Shown: positions 426 through 22,951, numbered from the stretch's first letter. The stretch: DNA of 64,000 nucleotides from Myxococcales bacterium (GCA_045863395.1 BTVJ01000003.1:195172-259171); one strand, 5' to 3'. Notes: generated by a model not told the origin, from the letters alone. Numbers and translations are program-made.

Positions 426-1346
426 CTACACCTCGTCCACGGTGACGTCGCGGGGGTGCAGCACGACCTCGAACACGCCCGTGCCGCTGGCCCGCACCAG
501 ATCGGGGCGCACCCGGGCGCGGCGCAGGCGGTCTCGCAGCCGGAACATGGCGACGTCGAGCTTGCGCCGCAGGCTGTCCCGCCCCTCGTCGTGCCCCCAG
601 AGCTCACCGGCCAGGGCCTCCCAGGACATGGGGCGCCCGGCCGCGATCAGCTCGCTCAAGATGCGCGCCGACAACCCGGTGATCACGACGGTCTCACCGT
701 CGCGGGCGATGTGGACCGTGTCGTAGCGCGCGACGATGCGGAGCGGTCCGGCGAGGCGGCTGGCGGCTGTCGCATCCGTGATGGAGGCGACCGTCGGCAC
801 GGCGACCGCCCGGAAGGCGCGGCCCTCCGCCGTGAACGCATCCCCGGGAAGGAGGGGGCGCGGCGGCTCGGAGCCCAGCCGGAGCGTGAAGCCGAGGCCG
901 CTCGACCAGATCACGGCGGCGGCCGCCGGGTGGACGCTGGGCTCGAGGGACGGGCGAGGTCGGAGCACCAGGGAGCAGGCGCTGTGCAGCACCTGCCGCG
1001 CCAGCCCGTCGCCCTCCAGCGCCAGGACCGCCTCGGGGAGGGTGACGTCCTCCACCGTCAGGTCAAGGCCCGGGGCCAGGCTCACGACGAGCCCGGGGGT
1101 CAGCTCCACCTCCCCGAGCCAGTGCCCTCCGACGCCGATGCGCCCCCGCAGCCCGACGAGGCGGAGCTCACCGCCGCGCAGGCTCACCATGGCGTGGGCC
1201 TCCGACACCCGCGGGTCGTCGAGCTGGAGCCGCGCGGACCACAGCCTTCCGATGAGCTCACCGTGGCCCAGGGTGGCTGACTCGCCGGTCGGCAGTCGGA
1301 ACAGTGCCTCTACGCGCATCACGGGGGAGGACTCTAGCGGGGCCAC
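426..1346 (-). CDS. FHA-domain protein with C-terminal winged-helix DNA-binding domain
   Basis: FHA motifs IGRLWSA and DPRVSEAHA; C-terminal OmpR-like wHTH (LAGELWG...LDVAMFRLRDRL). Co-oriented with the kinase. Start may be ATG 1319. Confidence 0.75.
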   Translation of the reverse strand: MAPLESSPVMRVEALFRLPTGESATLGHGELIGRLWSARLQLDDPRVSEAHAMVSLRGGELRLVGLRGRIGVGGHWLGEVELTPGLVVSLAPGLDLTVEDVTLPEAVLALEGDGLARQVLHSACSLVLRPRPSLEPSVHPAAAAVIWSSGLGFTLRLGSEPPRPLLPGDAFTAEGRAFRAVAVPTVASITDATAASRLAGPLRIVARYDTVHIARDGETVVITGLSARILSELIAAGRPMSWEALAGELWGHDEGRDSLRRKLDVAMFRLRDRLRRARVRPDLVRASGTGVFEVVLHPRDVTVDEV

Positions 1347-1494
1347 CCCAGGCGATCAACGCGGGCCATGTAAGAAGCGCGCAGGGACATCGGGGCCGTC
1401 GCCGCCGCTACAGTGCAGGCTCAAGCCAACATGCGACGGTCTCGCCCGCAAGGATCGTGCGGCCGTCGCTCCAGAATCACGACGAGAGGTCACC

Positions 1495-4308
1495 ATGAGC
1501 ACGTGGAACGAGATGCGCACCCGCCGGGGACCGGGCTCCCCGAGCGGGCGGTTCGGGCGAAGCCTCACCCTCTGTCTTGCGCTCGCGCTCGCAGGCAGCC
1601 TCTCCGCCTGCGAAGACGAGGCGGCCTCTCCAGCGGGCGGGGGCGGGACGGACGCGGGCACGATCACCACGGACACCGGAGGCACGGGGGCAACCGACGG
1701 CGGCGGCGGAGGCGGTGGGACGGACGCGGGCACGATCGCCACGGACACCGGAGGCACGGGGGCAACCGACGGCGGCGGCGGAGGCGGTGGGACGGACGCG
1801 GGCACGATCGCCACGGACACCGGAGGCACGGGGGCAACCGACGGCGGCGGTGGAGGCGGTGGGACCTCGGACACCGGGAACGGCTGCGCAGATGGGCTCC
1901 GGTGGAGCGGCGGGAGCTGCGTGGACATCGACGAGTGCGCCGAGGGCGGTCACGACTGCGACGCCAATGCGACGTGCACGAACACTCCGGGGGCCTTCAC
2001 GTGCAAGTGCAAGTCGGGCTTCGGGGGCGACGGCAAGACGTGCGTCGAGGGCGCCTGCGACCCCGGCTACAAGAAGAGCGGGTCGGGCTGCGCCGACATC
2101 AACGAGTGCAGCGAGGGGCTCCACGACTGCCACGCCAACGCGTCCTGCACCAACCTGACGGGCTCGTACTCCTGCGCGTGCAAGTCGGGCTACACCGGCG
2201 ACGGCAAGACGTGCGCCGAGATCCCCTGCGACCCGGGCTTCAAGAAGAGCGGGACGATCTGCGTGGACATCAACGAGTGCAGCGAGGGCCTCCACGACTG
2301 CGACGTGAACGGGACCTGCACCAACTCCACCGGGTCGTTCTCGTGCAAGTGCAAGACCGGCTACACCGGCGACGGCAAGACGTGCGCCGAGATCCCCTGC
2401 GATCCGGGCTTCAAGAAGAGCGGGACCATCTGCGTGGACATCAACGAGTGCACGGAGGGCCTGCACGACTGCGACCCGAACGGGTCGTGCAGCAACATGA
2501 CGGGATCGTTCACGTGCAAGTGCAAGTCTGGCTATGAGGGCGACGGCAAGTCCTGCACCGAGATCCCGTGCGCCCCGGGCTACAAGAAGAGCGGCTCGGG
2601 CTGCGTGGACATCCACGAGTGCAACGAGGGGCTGCACGACTGTGACCCGAATGCCTCCTGCTCGAACTCCACCGGCTCCTACTCCTGCAAGTGCAAGACG
2701 GGCTATGAGGGAGACGGCAAGAGCTGCGCGGACATCGACGAGTGCGCCACGGGCACCCACACCTGCGACGCCACGACCTTCTGCAAGAACACGGTGGGCG
2801 CCTTCACCTGCGACTGCGCCCCGGGCTACTCGAAGGCCGGCTCCAAGTGCTTCGACATCAACGAGTGCCTGGACGGTACTGACGACTGCGTGGCGTGGTG
2901 CCAGAACGTTCCGGGATCATTCAACTGCATGTCGACGGTGGCGGATGAGACCAGCCCCTACTATACGAAGACCTGCGACCCTGACTTCTCGTTCCACCAG
3001 TACAACTGGAAGGGCACGCCGCCCAACGAGACCTACGAGTACCAGACCAAGCTGATCGCGGACTGCCGGTGCGGCAACAACCGCATGCCCGTGCCGCTTG
3101 GCGGCCTGGCCATCTGCCAGAACCCGCTGGAGCTGCCGATGAGCTACGGGTTCGGGGCGGGCCCGACCATCCGCGAGCTCCCGAACGCGGGCATCCTGGG
3201 CGGCACCTTCGACCCGGAGACCCGCCTGATGTATGTGGGCATAGAGTGGCAGGGCACCTTCTACGAGGACCAGGGCGCCATCCTGGCCATCGACGCCGAC
3301 TCGGGCGACCGGACCATCATCTCTGGGCAGTGGCTGGACCCGGCCAACGGCTACGCGACCTACGGCGAGTCGGACCCGACCGACAAGACCTTCTGGACGG
3401 ATGACATCATCGGCGGCCCCGCCTACAAGAACCCGCTCGGGCGCGTGTACCACGTGCGGCTCGGCCAGGACGGGTATCTCTACGCCTTCACCGGGGACAA
3501 GGACAACTACGCACACATCGTCCGCGTCGACATCGCGACGGGCAACCGGAAGGTCATGTGGACGGAGAAGCGCTTCCTGGACCCGAAGAACCAGAACGAG
3601 CCTGCCCACGTCCAGTGCCCGAACGGCATGAAGCTCGAAGGGTCCACCACCTGGGCCCAGATCTACGACTACGGCGGCTTCGAGCTCGACGCCAACGGCG
3701 ACTACCTGGTGACGGTCCTCCAGAACGGCACGACCAGCAACATCACGCCCAACGGCATCATTCGCATCAAGAAGGACGGCACGGACTGCCAGTGGGTCAC
3801 CCGATTCGGCATGGGCACCAACAACGAGTTCTACGGCCAGACCATCGGTACGGGCCCGCTGGCACAGTTCTCCTTCGACGCGCTGTACCTCCACCAGGGG
3901 TTCCTGTACGCCGTGACCTCCAGCAACGCCATCGCCTTCAAGATCGACCCCACCACGGGCAACCGCACCATCGTCGCCAGCGACGCGGTCGGCACGGGGG
4001 CGCTCGTCGGCGTGGACTGGCTGAGCTGGGACCCGACCCGCAACATCATGTGGACCGGGGGCACGGGAGCGGGGACGACCATCGTCTCCTGGGACCTGGT
4101 GACGAACCAGCGGTCGAGCCACATCGGCCTCAAGGTCGCCAAGCCCAAGCAGTTCCAGACCGCGTCCGGGCCGCTCGACACCTGCTGCATGATCCACCTG
4201 CCGGGCTGGGTGGACACCGCCAACGGGCACCTGCTCGTCGGCTTCAGCAAGTACGCCATCCTCCGCTTCGAGCCCGAGTCGGGCAACTCCGTCATCCTGT
4301 CGCTGTAG
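1495..4308 (+). CDS. Lipoprotein with Gly/Thr linker, about 7 calcium-binding EGF-like repeats and a C-terminal beta-rich domain
   Basis: ATG 1495 after GAGAGG; lipobox LSAC; repeated DI(N/D)EC...C...C.N..GS(Y/F).C.C..GY.GDG..C; C-terminal region with D..(S/T)G(N/D)R units suggesting a beta-propeller. Confidence 0.85.
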   Translation: MSTWNEMRTRRGPGSPSGRFGRSLTLCLALALAGSLSACEDEAASPAGGGGTDAGTITTDTGGTGATDGGGGGGGTDAGTIATDTGGTGATDGGGGGGGTDAGTIATDTGGTGATDGGGGGGGTSDTGNGCADGLRWSGGSCVDIDECAEGGHDCDANATCTNTPGAFTCKCKSGFGGDGKTCVEGACDPGYKKSGSGCADINECSEGLHDCHANASCTNLTGSYSCACKSGYTGDGKTCAEIPCDPGFKKSGTICVDINECSEGLHDCDVNGTCTNSTGSFSCKCKTGYTGDGKTCAEIPCDPGFKKSGTICVDINECTEGLHDCDPNGSCSNMTGSFTCKCKSGYEGDGKSCTEIPCAPGYKKSGSGCVDIHECNEGLHDCDPNASCSNSTGSYSCKCKTGYEGDGKSCADIDECATGTHTCDATTFCKNTVGAFTCDCAPGYSKAGSKCFDINECLDGTDDCVAWCQNVPGSFNCMSTVADETSPYYTKTCDPDFSFHQYNWKGTPPNETYEYQTKLIADCRCGNNRMPVPLGGLAICQNPLELPMSYGFGAGPTIRELPNAGILGGTFDPETRLMYVGIEWQGTFYEDQGAILAIDADSGDRTIISGQWLDPANGYATYGESDPTDKTFWTDDIIGGPAYKNPLGRVYHVRLGQDGYLYAFTGDKDNYAHIVRVDIATGNRKVMWTEKRFLDPKNQNEPAHVQCPNGMKLEGSTTWAQIYDYGGFELDANGDYLVTVLQNGTTSNITPNGIIRIKKDGTDCQWVTRFGMGTNNEFYGQTIGTGPLAQFSFDALYLHQGFLYAVTSSNAIAFKIDPTTGNRTIVASDAVGTGALVGVDWLSWDPTRNIMWTGGTGAGTTIVSWDLVTNQRSSHIGLKVAKPKQFQTASGPLDTCCMIHLPGWVDTANGHLLVGFSKYAILRFEPESGNSVILSL
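1645..1860 (+). repeat. 3 x 72-bp near-perfect tandem repeat encoding GTDAGTI(T/A)TDTGGTGATDGGGGGG
   Basis: Units begin at 1645, 1717 and 1789 (gggacggacgcgggcacgatc...); in-frame linker. Confidence 0.95.
1918..2930 (+). repeat. cbEGF coding repeats (central units 171 bp / 57 aa)
   Basis: Near-identical units such as AEIPCDPGFKKSGTICVDINEC.EGLHDC. Confidence 0.9.
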
Positions 4309-4337
4309 GGGTCGGGTCGCCCATCGACGGGGGCGGC

Positions 4338-4366
4338 TTGTCGAGGCCGCCCCCCTGCGCTACCCT
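4338..4366 (+). promoter_or_regulatory. Putative sigma70-type promoter, probably leaderless, with the -35 inside a hairpin loop
   Basis: TTGTCG(4338)-17 nt-TACCCT(4361), ATG 7 nt later, no SD; stem 4329-4337/4346-4354. Confidence 0.5.
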
Positions 4367-4373
4367 GCGGCCC

Positions 4374-5048
4374 ATGGAAGACCTCTACTTTCGTCAGATC
4401 CCTGTCGGCCCCATGTCCAACTTTGCCTACGCCATCGGCTCGCTCTCGACGCGCGAGTGCGTGCTGGTGGACCCGGCCTGGGAGGTCAGGGCGCTCCTCG
4501 ACCAGCTCGACGAGGACGGCATGACCCTGACCGGCGCGCTGGTCACCCACTACCACCCGGACCACTGCGGCGGCTCCATGTACGGCTTCGCGGCGGAGGG
4601 GCTGCCCGAGCTGATGAAGCTCCGGCCGGTGCCGGTCCACGTCAACGAGCACGAGGCGGAGGGGCTCCGGCGGGTGACGGGGCTGTCCGCGTCGGATCTG
4701 ACCCGGCGCGCCTCGGGGGACCGGGTGGTGGTCGGTGGGGTCGAGCTGACCTTCCTCCACACCCCGGGTCACACGCCAGGGAGCCAGTGCTTCCTGGTCG
4801 GCGACCGCCTGGTGAGCGGCGACACGCTGTTCCTGCAAGGGTGCGGCCGCGTGGACCTGCCCGGCGGGGACGCGGCCGCCATGTACGAGTCGCTGACACA
4901 GCGCCTGTCGGCTCTCCCCGACGACACGATCCTCTACCCGGGCCACCTCTACTCCCCGGAGCCCCACGCCCCGCTCCGCGACGTCCGCCGCACCAACTAC
5001 GCGCTCCTGGTGCCGACCCTGAAGGACTGGCTGCGGATGATGGGGTAG
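4374..5048 (+). CDS. MBL-fold metallo-hydrolase (glyoxalase II-like)
   Basis: THYHPDHCGG, HTPGHTPGS, SGDTLF, GCGRVDLPGG, YPGH motifs. Confidence 0.9.
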   Translation: MEDLYFRQIPVGPMSNFAYAIGSLSTRECVLVDPAWEVRALLDQLDEDGMTLTGALVTHYHPDHCGGSMYGFAAEGLPELMKLRPVPVHVNEHEAEGLRRVTGLSASDLTRRASGDRVVVGGVELTFLHTPGHTPGSQCFLVGDRLVSGDTLFLQGCGRVDLPGGDAAAMYESLTQRLSALPDDTILYPGHLYSPEPHAPLRDVRRTNYALLVPTLKDWLRMMG

Positions 5049-5081
5049 GGGGCCGCGACGACGGATGTCAGCGCGCTGGAG

Positions 5082-5483
5082 TCAGTCCGTCGTTGGCAAC
5101 ACCCTCACGGTGATCTCCCGGCACCTCGTGAGGTCGCCGTCGTTGCTCAGATAGGCCGAAGCCTCCCAGGCGATGGCCGTGGCGAGGTGGATGGCGTCGG
5201 GAACCTTGAACCCGTACCTTGCGCGGAGGTCTGTGGCGATGTCCACGACCCGGCGGTCGATCTCGACGGCCGGCAGGCCGCCATCGAACAGCGCGTTGTA
5301 TCTCTGGACGAGGTCCAAGTCTCCATCCCGAAGCGGCTTGACTCGGCACTCGATGCGGGTGAGCTGTGACGTGAAGAGCGGAACGGGGTCATAGCCTGCG
5401 ACGAGCGTTCGTGCAGCCTCGCGTACTTCAGGCTCCCCTTCCGTCAGATAGATGATGATGCAGGAGTCCAGGTAGACGCTCAT
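5082..5483 (-). CDS. vapC: PIN-domain VapC-family toxin
   Basis: 133 aa; VYLDSCIIIY, TRIECRV, PDAIHLATA, LSNDGDL acidic PIN motifs. Confidence 0.9.
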   Translation of the reverse strand: MSVYLDSCIIIYLTEGEPEVREAARTLVAGYDPVPLFTSQLTRIECRVKPLRDGDLDLVQRYNALFDGGLPAVEIDRRVVDIATDLRARYGFKVPDAIHLATAIAWEASAYLSNDGDLTRCREITVRVLPTTD

Positions 5484-5689
5484 TCAGAGTCCCACGAGTC
5501 CCGCGCCTCCCGGAGCTGCTCGTCAATCTCCCCGCGCGACCGCTGCCCCTGTGGCAGTTGCGCCAGAAGATCGTAGATCGTGCGGGATGCACCACGGATC
5601 ATCAGTCTCGCGTCATTTGGGGGAGGCAGGAGCTGCAAGTATGGCCGAGGGGAGCGCGGCTCGATGAATCGCGAGGGCAACGCGGTCAT
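5480..5689 (-). CDS. Putative antitoxin for the VapC
   Basis: 69 aa, 4-nt overlaps with both neighbours; C-terminal RSRGEIDEQLREARDSW resembles VapC-partner tails. Confidence 0.6.
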   Translation of the reverse strand: MTALPSRFIEPRSPRPYLQLLPPPNDARLMIRGASRTIYDLLAQLPQGQRSRGEIDEQLREARDSWDSE

Positions 5690-6681
5690 TGGACTCTCCC
5701 ATGAATCAAGGCAGCCAGGTCTGCGCTGGCGTCCGGGGTCAGGTCAAGGCGGCCCTGCTTGAAGAGTCTGGCCATGGTGGCGTGTTCGTCGACCCACACG
5801 AGCCTGTCCTCTAGCCGCAATCCGGCGAACCCAGTGTGCTCGAATCGTCTCCGCAGACGCTCTCTGACGAGCTCCGGAGCCTCCGTGCGGCGGTTGACGA
5901 CTGGCACCACCGTCGGGAGCTGCTGACGAAGCGCCACGAAGGCCTCCATGGCGGCGAAGAGGTCTGAGCGGTCGGCGCCGGTCACCAGGAATGCACGGAC
6001 GTCCAGTCGTTGTCCCGAGTCGAGGGACGGAAAGCCCGTTGGTAGGGGTCTGTGCCCGTGGATGTGCGCGCAGAGCGACAAGACCTCGGTCGCAAAGCCG
6101 AAAAGCCCCGGAGACAGGTCGATGACGACATGGGTCGTCTCCGGCATCTGCTCTGCGACACTCGCGAGAATCCAGGCGAACCGCCGGGTCCAGGGCCCCA
6201 AGGGCTCCGTCACCGGCAGCCAGGCCAGCGCTTGTCCGACGTCCCGCGGGAGCGACGACGACGGGAGGTAGGCCACCCCGTCATCGGGATCGGACCTCCA
6301 GACGGCGCTCGCGATGAAGCACTCCTGCTCCGGGTAGGCCCCTCGATAGCCGAGCACATCGTTGAAGAATGGGGGGGGAGGTGCTTCCCCGTCTGTTGCG
6401 AGACCCCGGGCGTCACGGGCTGCCAGGGTCTCTCCCCGCGACATCCAGGCCCCCGTGGGCGGTGCACTCAGGTCCAAGGCACCGGCTGCGGTCCTCATGC
6501 TGCGTGGTGCGCACAGGTCGAGACCGTCGGCGAGCGATGTGCCGGTCAGGTCGCCGTCTACCACGAGCGGACGGCCGCCCGTCGCAGACAGGACCTGTGA
6601 CAACCCCACAGCCAGCGTCGACTTGCCGACGCCGCCCTTGACGGAGCACAGAACCCAGACATGGAGGGGGGGGACGTTCAC
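5686..6681 (-). CDS. ParA/MinD-family ATPase
   Basis: Deviant Walker A KGGVGKST, LVVDGD, VVIDLSPG, VVNR. Confidence 0.85.
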   Translation of the reverse strand: MNVPPLHVWVLCSVKGGVGKSTLAVGLSQVLSATGGRPLVVDGDLTGTSLADGLDLCAPRSMRTAAGALDLSAPPTGAWMSRGETLAARDARGLATDGEAPPPPFFNDVLGYRGAYPEQECFIASAVWRSDPDDGVAYLPSSSLPRDVGQALAWLPVTEPLGPWTRRFAWILASVAEQMPETTHVVIDLSPGLFGFATEVLSLCAHIHGHRPLPTGFPSLDSGQRLDVRAFLVTGADRSDLFAAMEAFVALRQQLPTVVPVVNRRTEAPELVRERLRRRFEHTGFAGLRLEDRLVWVDEHATMARLFKQGRLDLTPDASADLAALIHGRVQ

Positions 6682-9600
6682 TCTATCTGCTCCAAGGCGG
6701 CAAGGAGCTGCCGCACTCGAACATCATGCTGCCAGGGGTCGCGCGTCGCAAGCCCGGCGAGGATGACGCGCGCCTCATCCCGCCCCGCGGGTGGCGCCTC
6801 CATTGCCGCAGAGCCGAGCGCCAACGCCACGGCGATCCGGTCTCCGCCGTTCTCTGCGACCAGGCGGTCCAGCTCGTCCACCTCGCCAGCGAGCTGGTCG
6901 GGACTGGAGCGAGCGGTCGCCAGCAGGTGACGTCCGGCAAAAGCCGCCCAGTTGGGGTGCTGTGCCCGAGCCGCAAGCAGGCGGTGCACTCCGGGGTCGA
7001 CGGGGATCCGGCCCAGGGCGTGGAGCGCCACTGACACGGCGAAATGAGCGACATCTCCCAGGGTCTCTGCGCCAGTGCGGTGGAGCACCTCGAGGGCCTC
7101 CAGCTCCGAGTCGCTCGCCTCGTCGATGGCCTGGGCGGCGGCGACGAGCACCACGGGTCTCACGGGATCTGGTGGTGTGTCGGGCAGGTGTTTGGGACGA
7201 CCGGCGTCCTTCAGCCAGCGCAGGCGGACGTCCGGCGCCAGGGAGGCCCACTGGTCGGAGTCCAGCCGCAGGAGGACGAGCATCGCGAGGTCTGGCACCG
7301 TGGCGGCGGGGCTCCAGTCGACCACGGCGTCCGTCCGCCCTCCACGTCGGTGCTCCCGCTCGTCGGGGGTGGGCTCGCGGCTCGCGAGCTCTCGCAGGAC
7401 GGCCAGCACACCTCGAGTGGCGACGCTGTGCAGCTCCGCGCCGTCCCGCGACCGGGCCAGCTCTTCAGACGAGCGCAGCGCGTGGAGCACTGCCATCGTC
7501 CGAAGCTGGCGCCCCCCGGCGTATCGCGCCGGGTCCGGGACGTCCGAGCTGTGCGGAGCCCCCCAGGCATCGAGCCCGTGCTCGTCCAGCCGCTGCATGA
7601 AGGCCTGCCGGGCCTCGAGAGGAGCTGCATCGAGCAGCGTGATGAACCAGGTCGCGAGGCGCCAGGTCAACCACATGCGCTCGCGAGGGGGAGCGTCGGC
7701 GCCGGCGAGGCTCTCGACCACCCGCTGGCACAGCCGCAGGATCTGAGGCTCGCGCCTCGCGAACCCTGGCTGCGCGCGGCGGGGCAGGGTCGCCGCTGCG
7801 TCGCCCGTGGGCGAGGTGGTTGGCACGAGCGTCCCGATCACGCCCTCCACGAGTCGGGGGAGCTCGGATCTCAGGTCGACCTGGCCGGCGGGGAGGTCCC
7901 AGACCGCCTTCTGCGCGGCAGCCGCCCGGAGCACGACGAGGCTCGCCGAGAGCCACCCCGTCGGGACGGAGTCTGGATCCCTCATGTGTCCGAGGGCCTC
8001 GTTGAGCAGCTCTGCGCTCCGCTCGTCCGCGTCAAGGAGTGTGGCAGACAGGTTCGCCAGCGGTCCCGGGATTCGCGCGAGCATCAGCAGGAGCTCCCAC
8101 TTGTCGCGGCGATGCGACCAGGCGCCCGTCGTGAGCCGGTCGCGCAAAATCTCGACGAGGGGGCCGTCCGGTAGGGGACCAGGCTCGGAGAGGATCTGTC
8201 GCAGCTCGTCGACGTCTTTCAGCGTCGCGAAGGGGACGCCCCCGAGCTGCCAGGAGAAGAGCCAGGATGGGTCCTGGCGCATGTGGCGCCACGGGGCGCG
8301 CGCGGCCGCCACCGCGGCCGCCTCGAGGCGCGCGCCATCAGCGGGGTCGCTGGCCGCACCCAGGAACGCATCGTGGAGGCGCCCGTCCAGCGGCCCGAAA
8401 CGCGCGGCGGCCCAGGTGGCCCATGTCCCAAGCGCTGAGGCGCCCAGGCGGAGGACGACGGCCTCCGCGGGGACCTCCGCAGCGACCGTCAGGCCCCCGG
8501 CGTCCTCATAGGTGAACTGAATGTCCCCGTCGGCGTCGACGAGCGCCCGAGGCTGTGCTTCCACGAGCGACACACACCGCTGCACGAGCTCCAGGAGCGA
8601 CACGAACCTCGTCCCACCGTCCCCGCTGACGCGCAGCCCGACGCGCTCCAGAGGTTGTTGCTCCCACTGCGAAGAGGCGATGACCAGGGTGGCGAGGGCG
8701 CCCCGCGTGAGGGCATGGGGCCCGGTGTCGGCGGCGAGCGCCAAGGTCGCCTGCTCGAGGCTCACCAGCTCGGGGGGCGGCCCCTCGCCCGAGTCCTGGA
8801 GGCGCGGGCCCATTGACACCCAGAGGTCGGAGAGCGCGCGCTGTGCGGGCTCTCGCCGAGACGGGGCTCCCTGGACCCACCGCCCGATGGCGGTCCACAT
8901 GCGGCCCGCCGGAGCGTCCATACTGCTCGCGTAGGCGTCGCCCTCACGCGTGAAGGCGGCGAGGGGGGTGCGCAGGGCTGCCAGGCCGAGGAAGACCAGC
9001 AGCGGCTGCGTCAGCGCTCCAGGGTCGGCGACGCTGGACGGCGGCGCGTCACTAGCGCTGTGTCGCGCCAGCAGGAGCGACTTGCCGGACTCCTCCGCCG
9101 TGTCGAGCAGCGCGCGCGTCAGCCTCTCGGCGGCTTGCAGGTCTGCGCCGTCCGGGAGCCACGTGTCTGCGAGGGCCGCTGCAAACGTCTGCGCCACGAA
9201 GAGGACGAGCGGCCCCTGCCCCAGGTGGGCCCGGCGGAAGGCGGCTGGCACTGCGGCGAGCAGACGCGCGGGTCTGCCCTGATCCAAGGTGGCGTACCGC
9301 CTCGCGAGCTCCTTCAGGAGGTCTGAGCCGAGCGCCTCGATGGTGCCGTGCTCGGCGAGCTGCTCTCGCTTGGGCATGGCCTCGGCCGGGGGGCACAGGC
9401 GGTCGACGAGGTCTGGAAGGTGGACCTCGCGCTTTCGCACGGACGTCCTCTCGTGATGGAGGGTCGAGGCCAACGACGGTAGGGGCGCCAGCGCTCTGGC
9501 GGCATCGAGGAGCGCCACCGGATGGAGGGCGCTGGCGGCGGCCTCCGCCACGAGGATGCGCCTCTGACCATTGCACCACCGCCAGCGTTGAAGCAGCTCC

Positions 9601-12600
9601 CTCAGATAGTCTGCTGCGAGCGGGTGTCGGTCGCGGACCTCCGGGTCATCGAGCTCTGGCACCGGCGGGCGGCTGTCCACGCGGATCCAGCCCTCCTGGC
9701 GTCCAAGCTGGAGCCAGGCGCGAAGGTCGCGGGCCGCGCGGTGCGCCTGAATGGCTAGCCTGTCGCGATCCCACCGGTCATCGATCAACCTCGCCGTCTC
9801 GGGGCCCACATGGACTGGAGTTGCGCGTACGAGCGCGTCCAGCGCGCCGGCGGCCTCGAATCGCCACAGGGGCGCGTAGCGGAGGACGACGGCGGGCGGG
9901 AGCAACCCCGAGGTGGGGCGCCCGTCGCCGAGCGCGCCTTGGATGATTTGCTCCGCCTGGTCGCGGGGCAAGACCCCCGCAGAGAAGAGGGCGCGGACCA
10001 GCGTCGCGGTGGAGAAGGCCCCGCTGGAGGGCTCGACTGTGTCATCGACGAGCACGGCTCCGAGCTGGATTGCCAGCGCCGTGTCCGAGTCGTCCGGACC
10101 CCGGTGAGCCGCGCCGGACGGCCGGTGCCAGTCGATTCCGGGTGCGTCGCAGGCTCTCGCGCGAATCTTCATCAGCGTGGCGTGCTCGGCGGCCGGTGGG
10201 ATCTCGATGGCCCGGACGGCCTGCTCGAAGACGTCCTCGAAGACCACGAGCCTCCAGCCTGGGCGCTGGTCTCGCAGCGCGTCGAGGAGCCCGAGATGGT
10301 GCAGCCACAGGATCTCCAGTGCTCCGACCAGGAGCTCCACCCCGGCGCTCGGGAGCGGATCGCTCTGCGGGTTGGGCAGCGGGGCAGGGTACGTGCCAGG
10401 CTCACTGCGCTCAGCGACGAGGTGCGCGAACAGCTCCGCCGGAGGCCGCCCCAACGCCGCACAGAGGAGCGAGAAGGGGACCGCTCCCTCGCGCCAGTTC
10501 TGCTCGGTGGCGGCGGCGGTGGCCGCACTCAGCCGAAGGAGGTCGAGCCCCACCTCCGCGGGTATCCGGGTGACGACGTCGCGCTGCGCGAGGGAGTCCA
10601 TGTCGGGTGGTGGGAGCTCGGCAGGCCAATCCAGCGCCGAGCAGACGCGAAAGTAGGCTCCATGCGCGGCTGGGTCCACCGTGGTCGCCAGCTTGTCGTG
10701 GAGCGCACGCCCCATGGCGATGAGCGTAGCCCTCCGGTCGACGCTCCCCGCCATCGCGAGCAGGATCCCGGTCGCGTCCCCGAGCTCCTTCGCGGTCAGC
10801 GCTGCCCAGCCTACGTGCCCGGCTCGCAGGATCGCCGCCTCGGCGTCACGCTCCTGCCCCCGCATCAGGTGCTCCCGGCCGAGCTGGATCCACGCCTGTG
10901 GCGAGTCCGTTGCGTCGGCGTAGCGGGTCCAGCAGGAGACTGCCTCTGCGGGGGCGACGCTGCTGGCCGCCAGGGCCCGTGCCTGGAGCACGTCAGGGCC
11001 TGTCTCATGCGCGAACGGAACGAGCAGCTCCCAGGCGCGCTGCAGGAGGCGGCGCGGCTCCTCTGTGCCGCTCGCCGCGCAGGCCATGGTCACGCCCGCC
11101 ACCCGACGGAACCGGGAGCACGGGAGAGCGGCGACGGCAGCCTCCATGTGTGGAACGGCAGCCTGGAGGTCGCCGGCGTGGGTCAGAACCTGAGCAGCGA
11201 CCCACTCGATGGGGCCACGGCCGGGCCACTGGCGCGCCAGCTCCTCTGCGAGCGGACGGGCCTCGTCGGGGTCTCGCTCCGCGACGCTCCCGACGGCCTC
11301 CAACCGACGCAGCCACGGATGCACGTCGAGCCTCGAGCCCAGCTCCGCGTCTGGTGCCGGCTCCTGCGGATACTCCGCCTGGAGGCGCCGGTGCAGCTCG
11401 GCGGTGCGCGGGTCCATCGTCAGCCATGCGTACCGCGTCTCCAGGCTGAGCCGCGCGCCTCTCAGCGGGCCTGGGAGCGTCTCGTCCGGGAGCTCGCGGA
11501 GAGACTCCTCGAAGCGGCGGACCACCTCCGGCCGCTCCGCCACGGGGATGGGCTCCTCCTGAGCGGGGAACTCCAGGACGGTCGCGGAGATGGCACGCAG
11601 CAGGCCGTCGAGCGCCGCCAGCCGCCACCGGGGCAGCGTCTCCTGATCGAGCGCACGCAGCATCAGTCGGGCGGCGGACCAGGCCCTGCCGCGGTCGACG
11701 AGGTGCCGTGCAGCAGGGAGCGTGACCATCAGCTCGTCTGCGAGCGGCTCGGGCATGCGCCCCTCGGCCAGTGCGAGGAGCTGGCGGGCGAGCGCAACGG
11801 CCCCGTCGCCCTGGGCGGGCAGCAGCGCCCTGGCGCTCTCCAGCTCCCGCACCTGGACCAGCCCCTGCGCCAGGACTCCTCTCCCCTTGTCGTCGAGCGG
11901 CTGAGGGTCCACGGCCAGGAGGACCTCTCGTGCCTCATCGACGCGCTGGAGACAGAGCAGGGAGGAGGCCACGTTGAGGCGCAACGCCTCGGCGTTCCTC
12001 CTGGTCTCGGCATCAGCCCTGGAGGGGAGGGCGTCGACCAGCTCGAGTGCGCGCCGATAGAGGGCAAGCGCTTCCTCGAACCGACCCTCGCCGAAGCGCT
12101 GGCGGGCGTCTCGCAGCTCGTGGGGCAGGTGCGTCACGACGACACGCGCGAGTCGCGTGCCAGAGCGCTGCGCCCGCCGGTCACGGGCCTTCGCGGCCAG
12201 CGCCTCGAGGAAGGGCGCGACCTGGTCGAGCGATGTGAGCCCGATCAGTCGCAAATGGCCGTCTGCCCTCGCCGTGACGAGCCGAGACGTCGGCTCGAGC
12301 CAGAACGGTCCAACTCGGTGGCCCTCGAAGTCAGCCAGGCATCGCGTGATCTCATCGACGAGGTGGGGGTCACCGTAGCCGTATCCGACCAGCAGGACCT
12401 GGCCCTGCGTGAGAAAAGCGCTCAACACCCGCCGCCAGGCCTCGGCATTGTGATACACGCCGCGGAAGTCCGCATGCGTCAGGACGAGGTCGTGGTGGCT
12501 CGCTGCGTCGCCGTGCAGCTTCAGCACGTGACCCACGTCAAACCGGGCGATGCGCTCCACCTCGCTGATGGTGCAGACCTCGGCGGGGCCGCCGCGCTCT

Positions 12601-13004
12601 CTGAGCGCCCGCTCGAGCAGGCCGTCGTAGTTCGTCGTGAGGAACGCGGCCCCCGGCAAGGCAGCCAGCGCCCGATGGGTGATGGTCGGCCGCAGCGTGG
12701 GGTCGGAGAAGCGAGCGGCGACCTGAGCCTTCGCCCAGCCCTCGGGGAGCAGGCTCGCCGCGGTGATCGGATTGCCGCACCTGGCTTCACGGCGCGCTTC
12801 TTCGGACGTAGCCGCGTCAAGCAGTCCCGCGGACTCCGCTTCGTCGGCGAGCTGCTCCACGAGCTCGCGCCACCCCGGAAGCCCGGGGGGCGCGTCGGAC
12901 TCGGAGTCCGCCCGGGAGGCCCCCGCCCCCACGACAACCAGCAGGCGGTCCGAGGCCGCGGCGTCGACGAGGTCCTCGGGGATGGGCGGAAGGTCTGGTG
13001 TCAC
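6678..13004 (-). CDS. 2108-aa SIR2-like (SIR2_2) NADase domain + TPR repeats + probable PIN-like region + long helical C-terminus
   Basis: VVVGAGAS, GLPGWREL, LTTNYD, LKLHGD, LVGYGYGD; TPR-like GRFEEALALYRRAL; PIN-like LLVGALEILWLHHLGLLDAL. GTG start preceded by AGGAG. Confidence 0.8.
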   Translation of the reverse strand: MTPDLPPIPEDLVDAAASDRLLVVVGAGASRADSESDAPPGLPGWRELVEQLADEAESAGLLDAATSEEARREARCGNPITAASLLPEGWAKAQVAARFSDPTLRPTITHRALAALPGAAFLTTNYDGLLERALRERGGPAEVCTISEVERIARFDVGHVLKLHGDAASHHDLVLTHADFRGVYHNAEAWRRVLSAFLTQGQVLLVGYGYGDPHLVDEITRCLADFEGHRVGPFWLEPTSRLVTARADGHLRLIGLTSLDQVAPFLEALAAKARDRRAQRSGTRLARVVVTHLPHELRDARQRFGEGRFEEALALYRRALELVDALPSRADAETRRNAEALRLNVASSLLCLQRVDEAREVLLAVDPQPLDDKGRGVLAQGLVQVRELESARALLPAQGDGAVALARQLLALAEGRMPEPLADELMVTLPAARHLVDRGRAWSAARLMLRALDQETLPRWRLAALDGLLRAISATVLEFPAQEEPIPVAERPEVVRRFEESLRELPDETLPGPLRGARLSLETRYAWLTMDPRTAELHRRLQAEYPQEPAPDAELGSRLDVHPWLRRLEAVGSVAERDPDEARPLAEELARQWPGRGPIEWVAAQVLTHAGDLQAAVPHMEAAVAALPCSRFRRVAGVTMACAASGTEEPRRLLQRAWELLVPFAHETGPDVLQARALAASSVAPAEAVSCWTRYADATDSPQAWIQLGREHLMRGQERDAEAAILRAGHVGWAALTAKELGDATGILLAMAGSVDRRATLIAMGRALHDKLATTVDPAAHGAYFRVCSALDWPAELPPPDMDSLAQRDVVTRIPAEVGLDLLRLSAATAAATEQNWREGAVPFSLLCAALGRPPAELFAHLVAERSEPGTYPAPLPNPQSDPLPSAGVELLVGALEILWLHHLGLLDALRDQRPGWRLVVFEDVFEQAVRAIEIPPAAEHATLMKIRARACDAPGIDWHRPSGAAHRGPDDSDTALAIQLGAVLVDDTVEPSSGAFSTATLVRALFSAGVLPRDQAEQIIQGALGDGRPTSGLLPPAVVLRYAPLWRFEAAGALDALVRATPVHVGPETARLIDDRWDRDRLAIQAHRAARDLRAWLQLGRQEGWIRVDSRPPVPELDDPEVRDRHPLAADYLRELLQRWRWCNGQRRILVAEAAASALHPVALLDAARALAPLPSLASTLHHERTSVRKREVHLPDLVDRLCPPAEAMPKREQLAEHGTIEALGSDLLKELARRYATLDQGRPARLLAAVPAAFRRAHLGQGPLVLFVAQTFAAALADTWLPDGADLQAAERLTRALLDTAEESGKSLLLARHSASDAPPSSVADPGALTQPLLVFLGLAALRTPLAAFTREGDAYASSMDAPAGRMWTAIGRWVQGAPSRREPAQRALSDLWVSMGPRLQDSGEGPPPELVSLEQATLALAADTGPHALTRGALATLVIASSQWEQQPLERVGLRVSGDGGTRFVSLLELVQRCVSLVEAQPRALVDADGDIQFTYEDAGGLTVAAEVPAEAVVLRLGASALGTWATWAAARFGPLDGRLHDAFLGAASDPADGARLEAAAVAAARAPWRHMRQDPSWLFSWQLGGVPFATLKDVDELRQILSEPGPLPDGPLVEILRDRLTTGAWSHRRDKWELLLMLARIPGPLANLSATLLDADERSAELLNEALGHMRDPDSVPTGWLSASLVVLRAAAAQKAVWDLPAGQVDLRSELPRLVEGVIGTLVPTTSPTGDAAATLPRRAQPGFARREPQILRLCQRVVESLAGADAPPRERMWLTWRLATWFITLLDAAPLEARQAFMQRLDEHGLDAWGAPHSSDVPDPARYAGGRQLRTMAVLHALRSSEELARSRDGAELHSVATRGVLAVLRELASREPTPDEREHRRGGRTDAVVDWSPAATVPDLAMLVLLRLDSDQWASLAPDVRLRWLKDAGRPKHLPDTPPDPVRPVVLVAAAQAIDEASDSELEALEVLHRTGAETLGDVAHFAVSVALHALGRIPVDPGVHRLLAARAQHPNWAAFAGRHLLATARSSPDQLAGEVDELDRLVAENGGDRIAVALALGSAAMEAPPAGRDEARVILAGLATRDPWQHDVRVRQLLAALEQIE

Positions 13005-13335
13005 CGATGTCTCCTGGCTCTCCCGTGTCGCGAGTACCCCGCAGACGCATCCAGAGTTCCCGAACGCGGCATGCGCGTCAACGCTAGCGCAGGACCAGCG
13101 CCCCGCCTCGCAGCCATCAGGGTTGAACCATGGCGCTGCTGCATCGTGATGGAAGATGTAGCCGCGCTCACCATCGAGCGTGGTTCCGCACCCTGGGGGG
13201 TCTTCTCGCTCCGGCAGCCCACGCCTCGGGGCTTGCTCTCCAAGGGCTGGTCCCCGCGTGGGCGACCGCGCTCACTTTGCCAGATGACACGCACCGGCAC
13301 CTGTGGTACGGTCCTGCATTCCCCGGAGGACAGCC

Positions 13336-14688
13336 ATGACGAGCACCCGCGCCCAGGCCGAGCGTCAAGCCGCCACGTCGCCCGTAGCCACTGATGTGAC
13401 CGCGCCAGAGGCCCCAAGCCGCGCCAACGGCTTGCTCGGGGGATTGGAGGGCTACGCGGCCCAAGCCGCCCGCCTCTCGCCCCAGGGGCAGGTGGGTGGC
13501 CAGCCTGTCGCCGCCCCGGACGCTGCCCACGGCGCCGCCACCACCACCCAGGTCGCCCCCTCGGTGACCACCGACGCCTCCCCCGTCGCCGAGCCTGCGT
13601 CAGCGGATGCGCCGGCCGGCCCGGAGGCGCTCAGCCCCATCCGCCAGGCGATCATCGAGCGCTGCAACGCGCTGGATGGCAAGGGCGTCGGCGACAAGGA
13701 GTTCGACGCCATCTGCACGGAGACGTGGTGGCGCGAGCGCCAGGAGCTGGAGAAGAACAACAAGAAGTACAACAAGGAGCAGCTCGCGACGGACGTCGCC
13801 AAGTGGGAGCGGGAGCGGTCGCAGCACGAGGGCGACAAGGAGTGGCTGAAGAAGCACCCCAAGCCCATGCGCAAGGACGACTCGCACTTCACGACGTGCA
13901 TCGCGGCGCAGAGCAAGGTGCTGGAGATGGCGCTCCAGGCGACGGGCACCGAGATCAAGGACTCGAAGGTCCTCTCGTACGGCACCATGGGCCGGCTGGA
14001 GGCGAAGAAGCGCGGCGCCTGGGTGGAGGCGAAGGTCGGGATGTCCGAGCGCCCGAAGCCCGGAGACATCCTGGTGCTGGAGATGCGCGGCGCCCCCGAC
14101 AAGGTGCAGGCCGACATCGACGGCGAGAGCTCGGCCTACTCGCTCTTCGCGACGAACGTCAAGAGCCTCGAGAAGCAGCTCGCGCAGCAGCGCGCGGCCG
14201 CCCAGAGCACGACCGCGGCCATCGCTGCCGCCGCCACCGCGAAGGTGCCGCAGATCGAGCAGAAGCTGGCCGCTCTCCGGGCAGCCCACGACGCAAAGAT
14301 CGCCGCGCTGCAGGTCAAGCTCGACGAGGCCCGGCTCACGACGGCCGCCACGGCGGGCACCGAGCGGGCGCTCAAGGGCGGCAACCGCGTGGGGGGCCTC
14401 GAGTTCTCCCACGTGGGCATCTTCACCGGCAGTCAACCGGAGCTCGACGCCAGCGGGCTGCCCACCGGCCGCGAGATCTGGTCCACCTTCGATGGGGGCG
14501 CGCACGTCCCCGGCAAGGTCGACGACCAGGGCGCCAAGAGCGGCAAGCGCATCTACGATCCGCGCACCAACGAGATCGTGGGCGCGAAGACCGGGCCCGG
14601 CGGTATCGCGACCCAGGACGGCAAGACCCGGTGGCTCGGGGGCTGGACGAACGTGGACTCCCTGGTGACTCCGGCTCAGCGCCGCTAG
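13336..14688 (+). CDS. Hypothetical protein with possible papain-like (NlpC/P60/CHAP-type) catalytic motifs and a coiled-coil insert
   Basis: ATG 13336 after GGAGGA; FTTC, RPKPGDILVL, FSHVGIF, WSTFDGG in that order; strong codon bias. Confidence 0.55.
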   Translation: MTSTRAQAERQAATSPVATDVTAPEAPSRANGLLGGLEGYAAQAARLSPQGQVGGQPVAAPDAAHGAATTTQVAPSVTTDASPVAEPASADAPAGPEALSPIRQAIIERCNALDGKGVGDKEFDAICTETWWRERQELEKNNKKYNKEQLATDVAKWERERSQHEGDKEWLKKHPKPMRKDDSHFTTCIAAQSKVLEMALQATGTEIKDSKVLSYGTMGRLEAKKRGAWVEAKVGMSERPKPGDILVLEMRGAPDKVQADIDGESSAYSLFATNVKSLEKQLAQQRAAAQSTTAAIAAAATAKVPQIEQKLAALRAAHDAKIAALQVKLDEARLTTAATAGTERALKGGNRVGGLEFSHVGIFTGSQPELDASGLPTGREIWSTFDGGAHVPGKVDDQGAKSGKRIYDPRTNEIVGAKTGPGGIATQDGKTRWLGGWTNVDSLVTPAQRR

Positions 14689-14862
14689 GCAGGAGTCTCC
14701 CCGTGTGACAGAGGCCCGGTGGCGGTCGTCGCTGCCCGCGGGTGGGGAGACTCCAGGCAAGGCTGGTCCGGCGAGAGCCGGAGACAGGGGGCCGAATCCG
14801 CTCCAACGGGTGGGGGGCGCGGATCCGCGGGTGTCAACCGAGCCTGCAGCCCCCCGGCGGGG

Positions 14863-21284: not shown

Positions 21285-22898
21285 ATGACCGAGTCCTTCG
21301 CAGCCCTGTTCCCCCGCAGCCTGGACGACGTCCCCCCAGAGCACCGGCTGGAGCCCATCGAGCAGCGCGAGTGGCTGGTCGGGGGTGAGCTGCGCACCTG
21401 GGAGGGGCCCGTGCAGCGGGTCCGGTCCGTCGTGTGCGCAGGCCCCGACCTCCAGCGCGTCGACCTCGGCAGCACCCCACAGCTTGGGGCGGCCGAGGCC
21501 CTCGCCGCGCTGGACGCGGCGGACCGCGCGTGGGACCTGGGCCGCGGGGCCTGGCCGACCATGCCGGTCGCGGAGCGCATCCGCTGCGTCGAGGAGCTGG
21601 CGCGACGTCTCGCCGAGCGGCGGGAGGAGGTAGCGCGGATCCTGATGTGGGAGGTGGGCAAGGCGTGGACCGACGCGCTCAAGGAGGTGGATCGGACTGT
21701 CTCGTATATCCGCGACACGGTCACCGCGCTCATGGAGCTCGACCGGAGGTCCGCCTGGCCCGTCGTCGAGCAGGGCGTGTTCGGCCAGATCCGGCGCGCG
21801 CCGCTCGGGCCGACCCTGTGCATGGGGCCCTTCAACTACCCCCTCAACGAGACGTTCACGACGCTGGTCCCGGCGCTGATCATGGGGAACCCCGTGATCT
21901 TCAAGCCGCCCAAGCTCGGGGTGCTCCTGCACCGGCCCCTCCTCGAGGCCTTCCGAGACGCCTTCCCGCCGGGGGTCGTCAACACGGTCCATGGGGACGG
22001 CTCCACGGTCGTGGGGCCGCTCATGCAGAGCGGGCGCCTCGCGTGCCTCGCATTCATCGGCTCGAGCCGGGTCGCCGGCATCCTGAAGCACCAGCACCCG
22101 AAGCCGCACCGGCTGCGCGCCGTGCTCGGCCTCGACGCGAAGAACGCCGCCATCGTCCTCCCCGACGCCGACCTGGACCTGACCGCCCGCGAGTGCGTGA
22201 CCGGCGCGCTGACCTTCAACGGGCAGCGGTGCACCGCCCTCAAGCTCCTGTTCGTCCACCGGAGCATCGCGGAGCCGCTGCTGGAGCGCATGGCGGCGGG
22301 GATCGACGCCCTCCGAGGGGGCATGCCCTGGGAGCCCGGCGTCGGGATCACGCCGCTCGCCGAGGACGACAAGGCCGCGTGGCTCGGGGAGCTGGTCGCC
22401 GAGGCCGTCGCATCTGGCGGTCGCGTCGTGAACCGGCGCGGCGGGGAGTCGGCGGGCACTTATTTCCAGCCCGCGCTCGTGTGTCCGGTCGCGCCGTCGA
22501 CCCGGCTCTGGCGGGTGGAGCAGTTCGGGCCCGTGGTGCCGGTGGTGCCCTATGACGACGTGGAGGAGCCCCTGCGCCACGTCGTCGAGTCTGACTTCGG
22601 GCAGCAGGTCAGCCTCTTCGGGCAGGATCCGGCGACGCTCGGGGCGCTCATCGACCCACTCGTCAACCAGGTCTGCCGCGTCAACCTCAACACGCAATGC
22701 CAGCGCGGCCCCGACACCTTCCCATTCACCGGGCGCAAGGACTCCGCGGAGGGGACTCTCTCTGTCTCCGATGCGCTTCGTGTATTCTCCATCCGCAGTC
22801 TCGTCGCTGCGAGGGCGGACGACGCGGGCAAGGAGACCGTCCAGCGGATTCTGCGGGCGCGCACGTCGAAGTTCCTGTCGACGGACTTTCTGATGTAG
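21285..22898 (+). CDS. Aldehyde dehydrogenase family, probably non-phosphorylating NADP-dependent GAPDH
   Basis: MGPFNYPLNE, FKPP, AFIGSS, LGLDAKNA, FNGQRCTA (catalytic Cys), EQFGP, FPFTGRKDS. Confidence 0.85.
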   Translation: MTESFAALFPRSLDDVPPEHRLEPIEQREWLVGGELRTWEGPVQRVRSVVCAGPDLQRVDLGSTPQLGAAEALAALDAADRAWDLGRGAWPTMPVAERIRCVEELARRLAERREEVARILMWEVGKAWTDALKEVDRTVSYIRDTVTALMELDRRSAWPVVEQGVFGQIRRAPLGPTLCMGPFNYPLNETFTTLVPALIMGNPVIFKPPKLGVLLHRPLLEAFRDAFPPGVVNTVHGDGSTVVGPLMQSGRLACLAFIGSSRVAGILKHQHPKPHRLRAVLGLDAKNAAIVLPDADLDLTARECVTGALTFNGQRCTALKLLFVHRSIAEPLLERMAAGIDALRGGMPWEPGVGITPLAEDDKAAWLGELVAEAVASGGRVVNRRGGESAGTYFQPALVCPVAPSTRLWRVEQFGPVVPVVPYDDVEEPLRHVVESDFGQQVSLFGQDPATLGALIDPLVNQVCRVNLNTQCQRGPDTFPFTGRKDSAEGTLSVSDALRVFSIRSLVAARADDAGKETVQRILRARTSKFLSTDFLM

Positions 22899-22951
22899 GT
22901 TCGCGCCAGCAGAGTCTCGTGTCGCACCAGGGGGGGGAGGGGAGACTGGCC

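Follow-up and report, generated by a model that had tools for sequence, protein, structure and literature searches.

The window that we analyzed is a 64,000-nt stretch of Myxococcales bacterium DNA (GCA_045863395.1, BTVJ01000003.1:195172-259171), which contains at positions 5082..13004 of its minus strand a cassette of four intact open reading frames (ORFs): 13004-6678 for a giant SIR2-type protein (2,108 aa), 6681-5686 for a ParA/MinD-like ATPase (331 aa), 5689-5480 for a probable VapB-type antitoxin (69 aa) and 5483-5082 for a VapC-type toxin (133 aa). As judged by comparison with related loci, the conserved unit of this cassette is the helical C-terminal domain of the giant together with the ATPase, rather than the SIR2-TPR part together with the ATPase. 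A slot for cargo genes coupled to the ATPase gene is likewise conserved, whereas the VapBC filling of this slot is not.

Linkage of the ATPase to a helical partner domain

A survey that started from the ATPase comprised 22 loci with a ParA of this family. In 18 of them the directly upstream gene ends in a giant-type helical domain; 11 of these genes encode giants (one, in genome G476, is split over two contigs with overlapping ends), and the other seven, those of clade B, encode proteins of 550-720 aa without a recognizable effector that are homologous to the giant C-terminus (hhalign 97.1%, E 5.5e-11, 333 columns). An Atlas search with a clade-B partner yielded leads under 0.9 only. The remaining ParA loci were two orphans (L163 and L177), a broken locus (L156) and one without upstream sequence (L071). 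The assignment of the helical domain plus ParA as the conserved unit follows from the presence of the partner domain in both clades and from two SIR2 giants, L152 without most of the PIN region and L153 without most of the TPR part, which both retain the C-terminus and ParA. A functional tie between ParA and the helical domain is a likely reading of these sequences. Moreover, since the clade-B partners carry no recognizable effector, ParA must do more than control a fused effector.

The ParA and partner trees, the latter in a quick version, gave the same main groups, and the pairwise identities of ParA and partner were correlated (rho 0.74 for 17 pairs; 0.73 for the 10 giant pairs, 0 of 5000 permutations). 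When genomes were searched with a C-terminal profile, 4 of the 182 genomes of one class were positive, all with an adjacent ParA (three of them being profile members), as were 3 genomes in a phylum sample of 380, none of them new. ParA thus has the partner domain almost always, whereas the giant can do without ParA. Among the ParA-less giants, one is N-terminally cut short beside an integrase fragment, and two CHAT genes, nearly identical to each other, are split and eroded at the C-terminus. The surroundings of ParA-less giants (L197:1-4960; L198; L199:11625-17975) are more island-like, with type IIG restriction, caspase/CHAT, integrase and AriAB-like neighbors. When giant aa 1444-2108 and one ParA chain were predicted as a complex, two runs without folded controls both scored 0.00, an outcome that counts neither way.

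Six of the seven clade-B cassettes lie back-to-back with genes of the GAP1-N1 system, and the contig of the seventh ends too early. The gene order at L072, L073, L165, L178, L179 and L180 (partially at L155 and L156) is partner-domain gene, ParA, a ~165-aa gene and a gene for a metallo-beta-lactamase (MBL)-fold protein, back-to-back with GASH, DO-GTPase and GAP1-N1 genes. Genome G507 carries one cassette of each clade (L001 and L179), and genome G289 holds two divergent SIR2 cassettes, the above-mentioned L152 and L153.

The cargo slot downstream of the ATPase gene

A gene starts between -5 and +14 nt from the ParA stop codon in 20 of 20 loci (L071 and L156 are left out of this count), in 13 of them as a 4-nt overlap and also behind both orphan ParAs. 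The cargo falls into eight classes across these loci, and the coupling of the start is present in all eight. Four different pairs of a small gene and a PIN gene were found, at the window, at L163, at L152 (with a DUF6364-like gene) and at L153, where a 119-aa gene that we take to be UPF0175-like precedes a DUF3368 gene. Further cargo consists of DUF5678 plus an aspartyl protease (L167, L176 and, by homology, L070), extended Uma2 nucleases (L154, L164, L166 and L177), an unnamed pair (L001 and L175) and, in clade B, the ~165-aa gene plus the MBL-fold protein. The preliminary description of this DNA, made from the sequence alone, had regarded the toxin-antitoxin (TA) pair as an attachment; this holds for the VapBC genes themselves, which are not conserved, but not for the coupled toxin-type module after ParA, which is (20/20).

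At the window, the first cargo gene (5480..5689) encodes a 69-aa protein with a Pro/Arg-rich N-terminus and a C-terminal EIDxxLRExRxSW motif, which by eye resembles genes upstream of two of three plasmid VapC homologues. Pfam, PADLOC and NCBIfam scans gave no family match for this protein, and a plasmid search gave none either; from its motif and position it is a probable VapB-type antitoxin. The 133-aa PIN toxin behind it (5082..5483; Pfam PIN, E 4e-15) follows a small coupled gene as in VapBC modules and contains D6, E45, D96 and D115, presumably the catalytic residues of the PIN motif. The N-terminus of the first cargo protein is rich in Pro (13% versus 6% in 351 coupled host genes; 0 of 2000 control draws), a comparison in which the 20 N-termini are not independent (seven are from clade B and four are Uma2) and in which other reading frames of the same cargo DNA already give 6-11% Pro.

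Organization and integrity of the cassette

The three gene junctions of the window cassette are 4-nt overlaps, GTGA, ATGA and ATGA in operon order. The GC content at third codon positions (GC3) is 0.85 for the giant, 0.79 for ParA, 0.74 for the 69-aa gene and 0.81 for VapC, all below the 0.89-0.95 of nine out of nine measured flanking genes. Both the overlapping minus-strand genes and the less GC-biased codon usage had been pointed out in the preliminary description. The 8.77-Mb genome (G000) has one copy of each cassette gene. The locus is spanned gap-free by two contigs (1821-9924 and 9913-14858) from an independent DNA run, and the reading frames are therefore not assembly artefacts. Contigs from RNA libraries of two studies overlie parts of the operon, one spanning the giant/ParA junction, although such contigs cannot show transcription. 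A promoter and terminator scan found none.

The giant protein

The giant (6678..13004, GTG start) is composed of SIR2, TPR, a double PIN fold that has lost the first Asp, and a helical C-terminus of ~880 aa. Its SIR2 NADase-type domain (12195..13004; aa 1 to ~270) matched Pfam SIR2_2 (E 2e-20) and ThsA (E 4e-12), and in a PDB profile comparison the GAG, TTNYD (N125) and KLHG (H164) motifs, which had been described earlier as intact, indeed aligned with those of ThsA/DSR2-type NADases, the likeness to ThsA/DSR-type proteins being confined to the first ~240 residues. On this basis the domain is very likely an active NADase. The TPR solenoid, the predicted sensor (10605..12137; aa ~290-800), was recognized with a profile of aa 280-800, which matched TPR proteins along with further helical ones (best E 2e-8). 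Pfam at E 0.1 detected no GreA/B-C domain in the giant, the same profile found no GreA/B chain, and in an AlphaFold2 model of aa 770-1969 (20 alignment rows; predicted local distance difference test (pLDDT) 80.7; predicted template modeling score 0.76) the helices run straight into the PIN fold with no GreA/B-C between. Three of four sequencing runs carry six clustered strain differences at 10729-10749 that alter three TPR residues (aa 756, 757 and 759), possibly a variable sensor patch.

In the same model, aa ~885-1215 (9360..10352) form two alpha/beta units whose best structural (VIA) matches are PIN domains, with EST1A at the top (Z 8.2, root mean square deviation 3.5, 130 aligned) and Nmd4, Rrp44, VapC and Utp24 also among the rows. 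Because these scores barely exceed those of generic helical-repeat rows, the assignment leans also on PF20698, matched in one of 10 giant relatives (E 3.7e-4), and on the upstream HTH_upst_double_PIN domain (PF24407), matched in one of 11, both below cut-off; in the window giant the latter appears as a weak sub-cut-off match at aa 826-860 (10422..10529; E 0.13 and E 0.31; Atlas lead 0.82). A search of genomes for PF20698 was positive in none of three. Pfam gave no PIN match in the middle region of the window giant, so that the earlier reading of this protein as PIN-like finds support in the predicted fold but none in Pfam. The PIN units are probably not nucleases, since another residue stands in place of the first catalytic Asp in both units of the window giant (LLVGA and VVLRY) and of most relatives in the alignment, and several relatives lack half of the first unit.

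The remaining C-terminal region (6681..9317; aa ~1230-2108), whose core at aa ~1534-1913 we call the ParA-partner domain, is mostly helical and has many strongly conserved alignment columns. It belongs to no Pfam family and no PDB sequence family (one row at E 0.17 when the C-terminal profile was compared with PDB), the VIA matches for it in the aa 770-1969 model are to generic ARM/HEAT repeats (Z 8.0 at most), and Foldseek with the 1,200-aa model returned nothing at E 0.001. None of 18 giant sequences or pieces contains the Walker A pattern [GA]x4GK[ST], as expected from the earlier remark that no STAND Walker A could be seen. A single-protein search with the giant retrieved itself only, and a single-sequence locus scan confirmed 0 of 135 stretches.

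Five N-terminal effector types were found in the giant family on a constant body: SIR2 (the window, L152, L153, L176, P0162 and P0164), TIR-type (L164 by Pfam and L154 by homology), calcineurin-like (L167, L175 and L197), EAD1 (L001) and CHAT (L198 and L199). Such swapping of effectors, as seen here in the sequences, is usually a sign of a conflict system, and together with the domain parsing it supports the sensor-effector architecture previously suggested for the giant. Frameshifts split several giants (L001:3365-9956, L176:4769-11400, L198 and L199), which suggests frequent loss of function or assembly error. At L167:6480-9460, the 3' half of the calcineurin-type giant is inverted with respect to its 5' half and ParA; the ends of the inversion show no clean inverted repeats, and it reflects either natural inactivation or misassembly.

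The ParA/MinD-type ATPase

The ATPase (5686..6681) has intact KGGVGKS and DxD motifs, D188 and N263, and contains a ~90-aa family-specific insert. Its relatives numbered 150 at E up to 1e-10 among 50%-identity representatives, and at E up to 1e-30 the family comprised at least 357 clusters among the 8000 candidates scored; by these sequence criteria the protein represents a ParA/MinD subfamily of its own. A model of pLDDT 94.8 gave Foldseek matches to FlhG (E 4e-9), FleN, MinD and Soj at 12-18% identity. The ATPase is probably catalytically active, because the signature Lys (K15, 70 of 71 sequences), the Walker A Lys (K20, 71 of 71), the switch Asp (D44, 70 of 71) and the Walker B Asp (D188, 71 of 71) are kept.

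The named homologues are mostly from Myxococcota (Polyangiaceae, Sorangium, Byssovorax and Myxococcales), two being labelled Ca. Nanopelagicales. The ATPase is patchily distributed, occurring in 5 of 401 genomes of the phylum sample and, for two classes, in 8 out of 182 and 6 out of 401 genomes, counts that are floors since a stricter first-pass threshold was applied. Alignment scans returned mainly ordinary ParAs that matched through Walker A; one of the 69 genome loci and four of the 76 metagenome loci belonged to the family, and the rest were dropped. The ParA family had no match in plasmids and viral contigs, and no ParB or MinC/MinE neighbor was found among 21 downstream ORFs scanned or the window genes. 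The cultured strains Sorangium sp. So ce1182 and So ce341 (P0180 and P0258) encode the ATPase (WP_437663268.1 and WP_437942735.1), which makes its proposed role testable.

Comparison with known systems

The giant is a divergent, GreA/B-C-less and C-terminally extended relative of the TGP (TPR-GreA/B-C-PIN) anti-phage sensors. The TGP proteins of Kaur et al. 2021 (PMC8195603) have swappable effectors that include SIR2 and are mostly standalone; SIR2, TIR and EAD are listed as effectors in its text, and a calcineurin row stands in its source data. According to these source data, most of the full-length TGP rows examined are of ~1,050-1,500 aa and end at PIN, there are GreA/B-C-less rows, and one 2,304-aa protein, MBI4846278.1, has two transmembrane (TM) segments in the order TM+SIR2+TPR+PIN+PIN+TM and no named neighbor; by this listed architecture it resembles our giant. 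All 20 'ParA-Soj' entries of the source data lie outside the TGP table. One TGP protein, Agp of Bab/Agp, senses T5 and triggers abortive infection, as a preprint reports (bioRxiv 10.1101/2024.11.07.622273). The giant thus shares with TGP the variable N-terminal effector (its five types overlap the published list), the TPR body and the predicted PIN region, but it has no detected GreA/B-C, its PINs are degenerate, ~880 extra residues follow at the C-terminus, and a dedicated coupled ParA with cargo accompanies it, whereas TGP genes are mostly standalone.

With Avs/AVAST and bacterial NLRs (effector-STAND-TPR, e.g. the SIR2-bearing Avs5) the system shares the effector and TPR sensor in one large protein and the presence of a nucleotide switch; however, the giant has no STAND (no Avs model matched it), and the nucleoside triphosphatase is a separate protein of the ParA/MinD type. 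The cassette hence works like a sensor-effector system of the TGP/Avs type but lacks the GreA/B-C domain and standalone state that characterize TGP and the STAND that characterizes Avs. Thoeris ThsA, DSR1/DSR2 and SIR2-HerA have the same class of SIR2 NADase domain. Nevertheless, the ThsA model matched positions 18-208 of 478 only, the other three cassette genes had no Thoeris match and ThsB is absent; the Dsr2 match reached 21.5 bits against a cut-off of 1400, over aa 98-181 only, with no DSR body; and the cassette ATPase is of the ParA/MinD type by sequence and fold, with no HerA. The deviant Walker A and the fold recall Soj-ParB, MinD-MinE, McdAB and FleN/FlhG, but no ParB or MinE was found and the partner domain is of no known family. 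In toxin-antitoxin-chaperone systems a third protein gates a tagged antitoxin by means of SecB and a C-terminal tag; this is an analogy only, the tag of the cassette being, if present, N-terminal and the ATPase not SecB.

The GAP1-N1 systems resemble our cassettes in that the ParA and partner domain of the sister clade are found back-to-back with their GASH, DO-GTPase and GAP1-N1 genes, the latter being absent at the window locus. Section 28 of Kaur et al. 2020 (PMC7159879) describes GAP1-N1 double-GTPase systems with no mention of ParA or the partner, and the conflict-system ParA/MinD domains that this paper presents are fused ones, called inactive in VMAP and peptide-linked systems. PADLOC 2023 and NCBIfam gave domain-level matches only, and a literature search mostly excluding subscription papers turned up no account in which a ParA is coupled with a TGP-like protein or with TA cargo. 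The ParA module is therefore apparently undescribed, and the statement in the preliminary description that the combination is not a named system agrees with these searches; as to its novelty, however, the giant has a precedent in TGP, and SIR2 is one of five effector types. Linkage of the ATPase to SIR2-TPR homologues, a check suggested there, was observed, but it tracks the C-terminal helical domain, which serves the GAP1-N1 system as well, and the giant may occur without ParA.

Proposed mechanism and alternatives

We propose a two-output abortive-infection cassette in which the TPR and degenerate double-PIN scaffold would detect a phage product and the N-terminal SIR2 would then deplete NAD+ in the manner of the SIR2 effectors of DSR and Thoeris. 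The ParA-like ATPase, with the C-terminal helical domain as its dedicated partner, would act in trans as an ATP/ADP dimer switch where Avs/NLR proteins carry a fused STAND, and would hand the activated state to the translationally coupled cargo, here VapBC, so that a second toxin is released. What we infer in this scheme comprises sensing, oligomerization, loss of NAD+, all contacts between the components and the way in which the signal runs. A role in defense is highly probable, the patchy distribution, the GC3 below that of the host and the frequent broken copies being typical of defense genes. That ParA acts on the cargo is a tentative proposal, and the complete chain from partner domain through ParA to second toxin has, in our estimation, about an even chance of being correct.

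Several observations weigh against this scheme. The ParA-partner correlation was not significant in clade B (rho 0.56, seven pairs, 278 of 5000 permutations), and co-variation is also expected from co-inheritance alone. In a second class, 7 of 401 genomes were giant-positive with the C-terminal profile, three with and four without ParA; likewise, among the six genomes outside profile building, two giants had ParA and four did not, and the giant of L197, a frame of 2,254 aa next to a type IIG restriction locus, is full-length and has no ParA. Conversely, two ParAs (L163 and L177) have no partner gene, and one locus (L156) is broken. ParA-linked cassettes are found mostly among housekeeping genes, outside defense islands. 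The cargo families are mutually unrelated and would be hard for one ATPase to recognize, and a shared short N-terminal cargo motif seen by eye was rejected, since equally high scores came from 37 of 200 shuffles and from 28 of 200 real-gene sets (the three regex patterns had been picked after inspection).

If ParA regulated the giant only, by holding it off or aiding its assembly, TA-like modules, which are common hitch-hikers, would merely accumulate behind a defense operon. The linkage of partner domain and ParA in 18 of 22 loci and the unrelated cargo genes with no common motif would suit such a role, which we consider unlikely: the clade-B partners offer no recognizable effector to regulate, the coupling of the cargo start held in all eight classes and both orphans, and the full-length giant of L197 without ParA implies that the ATPase is not an obligatory inhibitor. 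A relay to the cargo is favored over pure inhibition of the giant on just these grounds, the effector-less clade-B partners, the ParA-less full-length giant and a cargo coupling that outlasts the loss of the partner.

The resemblance of the ATPase fold to FlhG, FleN, MinD and Soj also recalls positioning systems, in which a ParA like McdA, ParC or PomZ would localize the immune complex or the cargo to the nucleoid or membrane, with the basic and disordered N-terminus of the cargo serving as the activating peptide. ParA/MinD partners do bind via a positively charged, disordered N-terminus, according to PMC10241942, and the cargo N-termini are Pro-rich (0 of 2000 control sets). We regard this role as quite improbable in view of the interdependence of the 20 N-termini, the Pro content of the alternative frames and small toxins with no obvious need to be placed. 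Least probable of all, and very improbable in itself, is a selfish or addiction cassette without defense function, in which ParA segregates a mobile element that TA and SIR2 stabilize; although the lower GC3, the different insertion site in each genome and the TA pair would be in line with it, no ParB was matched among the downstream genes scanned, no integrase among the 50 flanking ORFs scanned at ParA-linked loci (not every ORF), and ParA was unmatched in plasmids or viral contigs, while effector swapping and the GAP1-N1 link indicate conflict systems.

Generalizing from the proposed two-output cassette, the helical domain and its dedicated ParA might be a portable immune relay that plugs into at least two unrelated sensors, TGP-like giants and GAP1-N1 GTPase systems, and switches on interchangeable toxin modules with an N-terminally tagged first protein; we find this extension rather doubtful. 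The established role of active ParA/MinD ATPases that stand alone is to position DNA, division sites and organelles. If the extension were true, a positioning-type ATPase would be a signaling switch of bacterial immunity, a split counterpart of STAND, and ordinary TA pairs would be under sensor control; an intact ParA subfamily that tracks one partner domain across two defense systems would thus add an immunity switch and a new TA wiring. The giant would in turn represent a TGP-like sensor without the RNA-polymerase-binding domain, which must therefore detect something else.

Other genes in the window

About 10 kb from the cassette, positions 22697-28783 (plus strand) encode a 2,028-aa protein with DUF4011, a superfamily 1 helicase and an MTES_1575 nuclease, an architecture that we take to be that of the Hhe defense protein. 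A divergently oriented gene at 13303-14688 (plus strand) encodes a 461-aa protein with host-like GC3 and no Pfam or NCBIfam match. At 426-4308, a gene whose product has cysteine-rich repeats and a low-complexity linker of Gly and Thr is divergent from a 306-aa gene that had no Pfam match at 1e-6.

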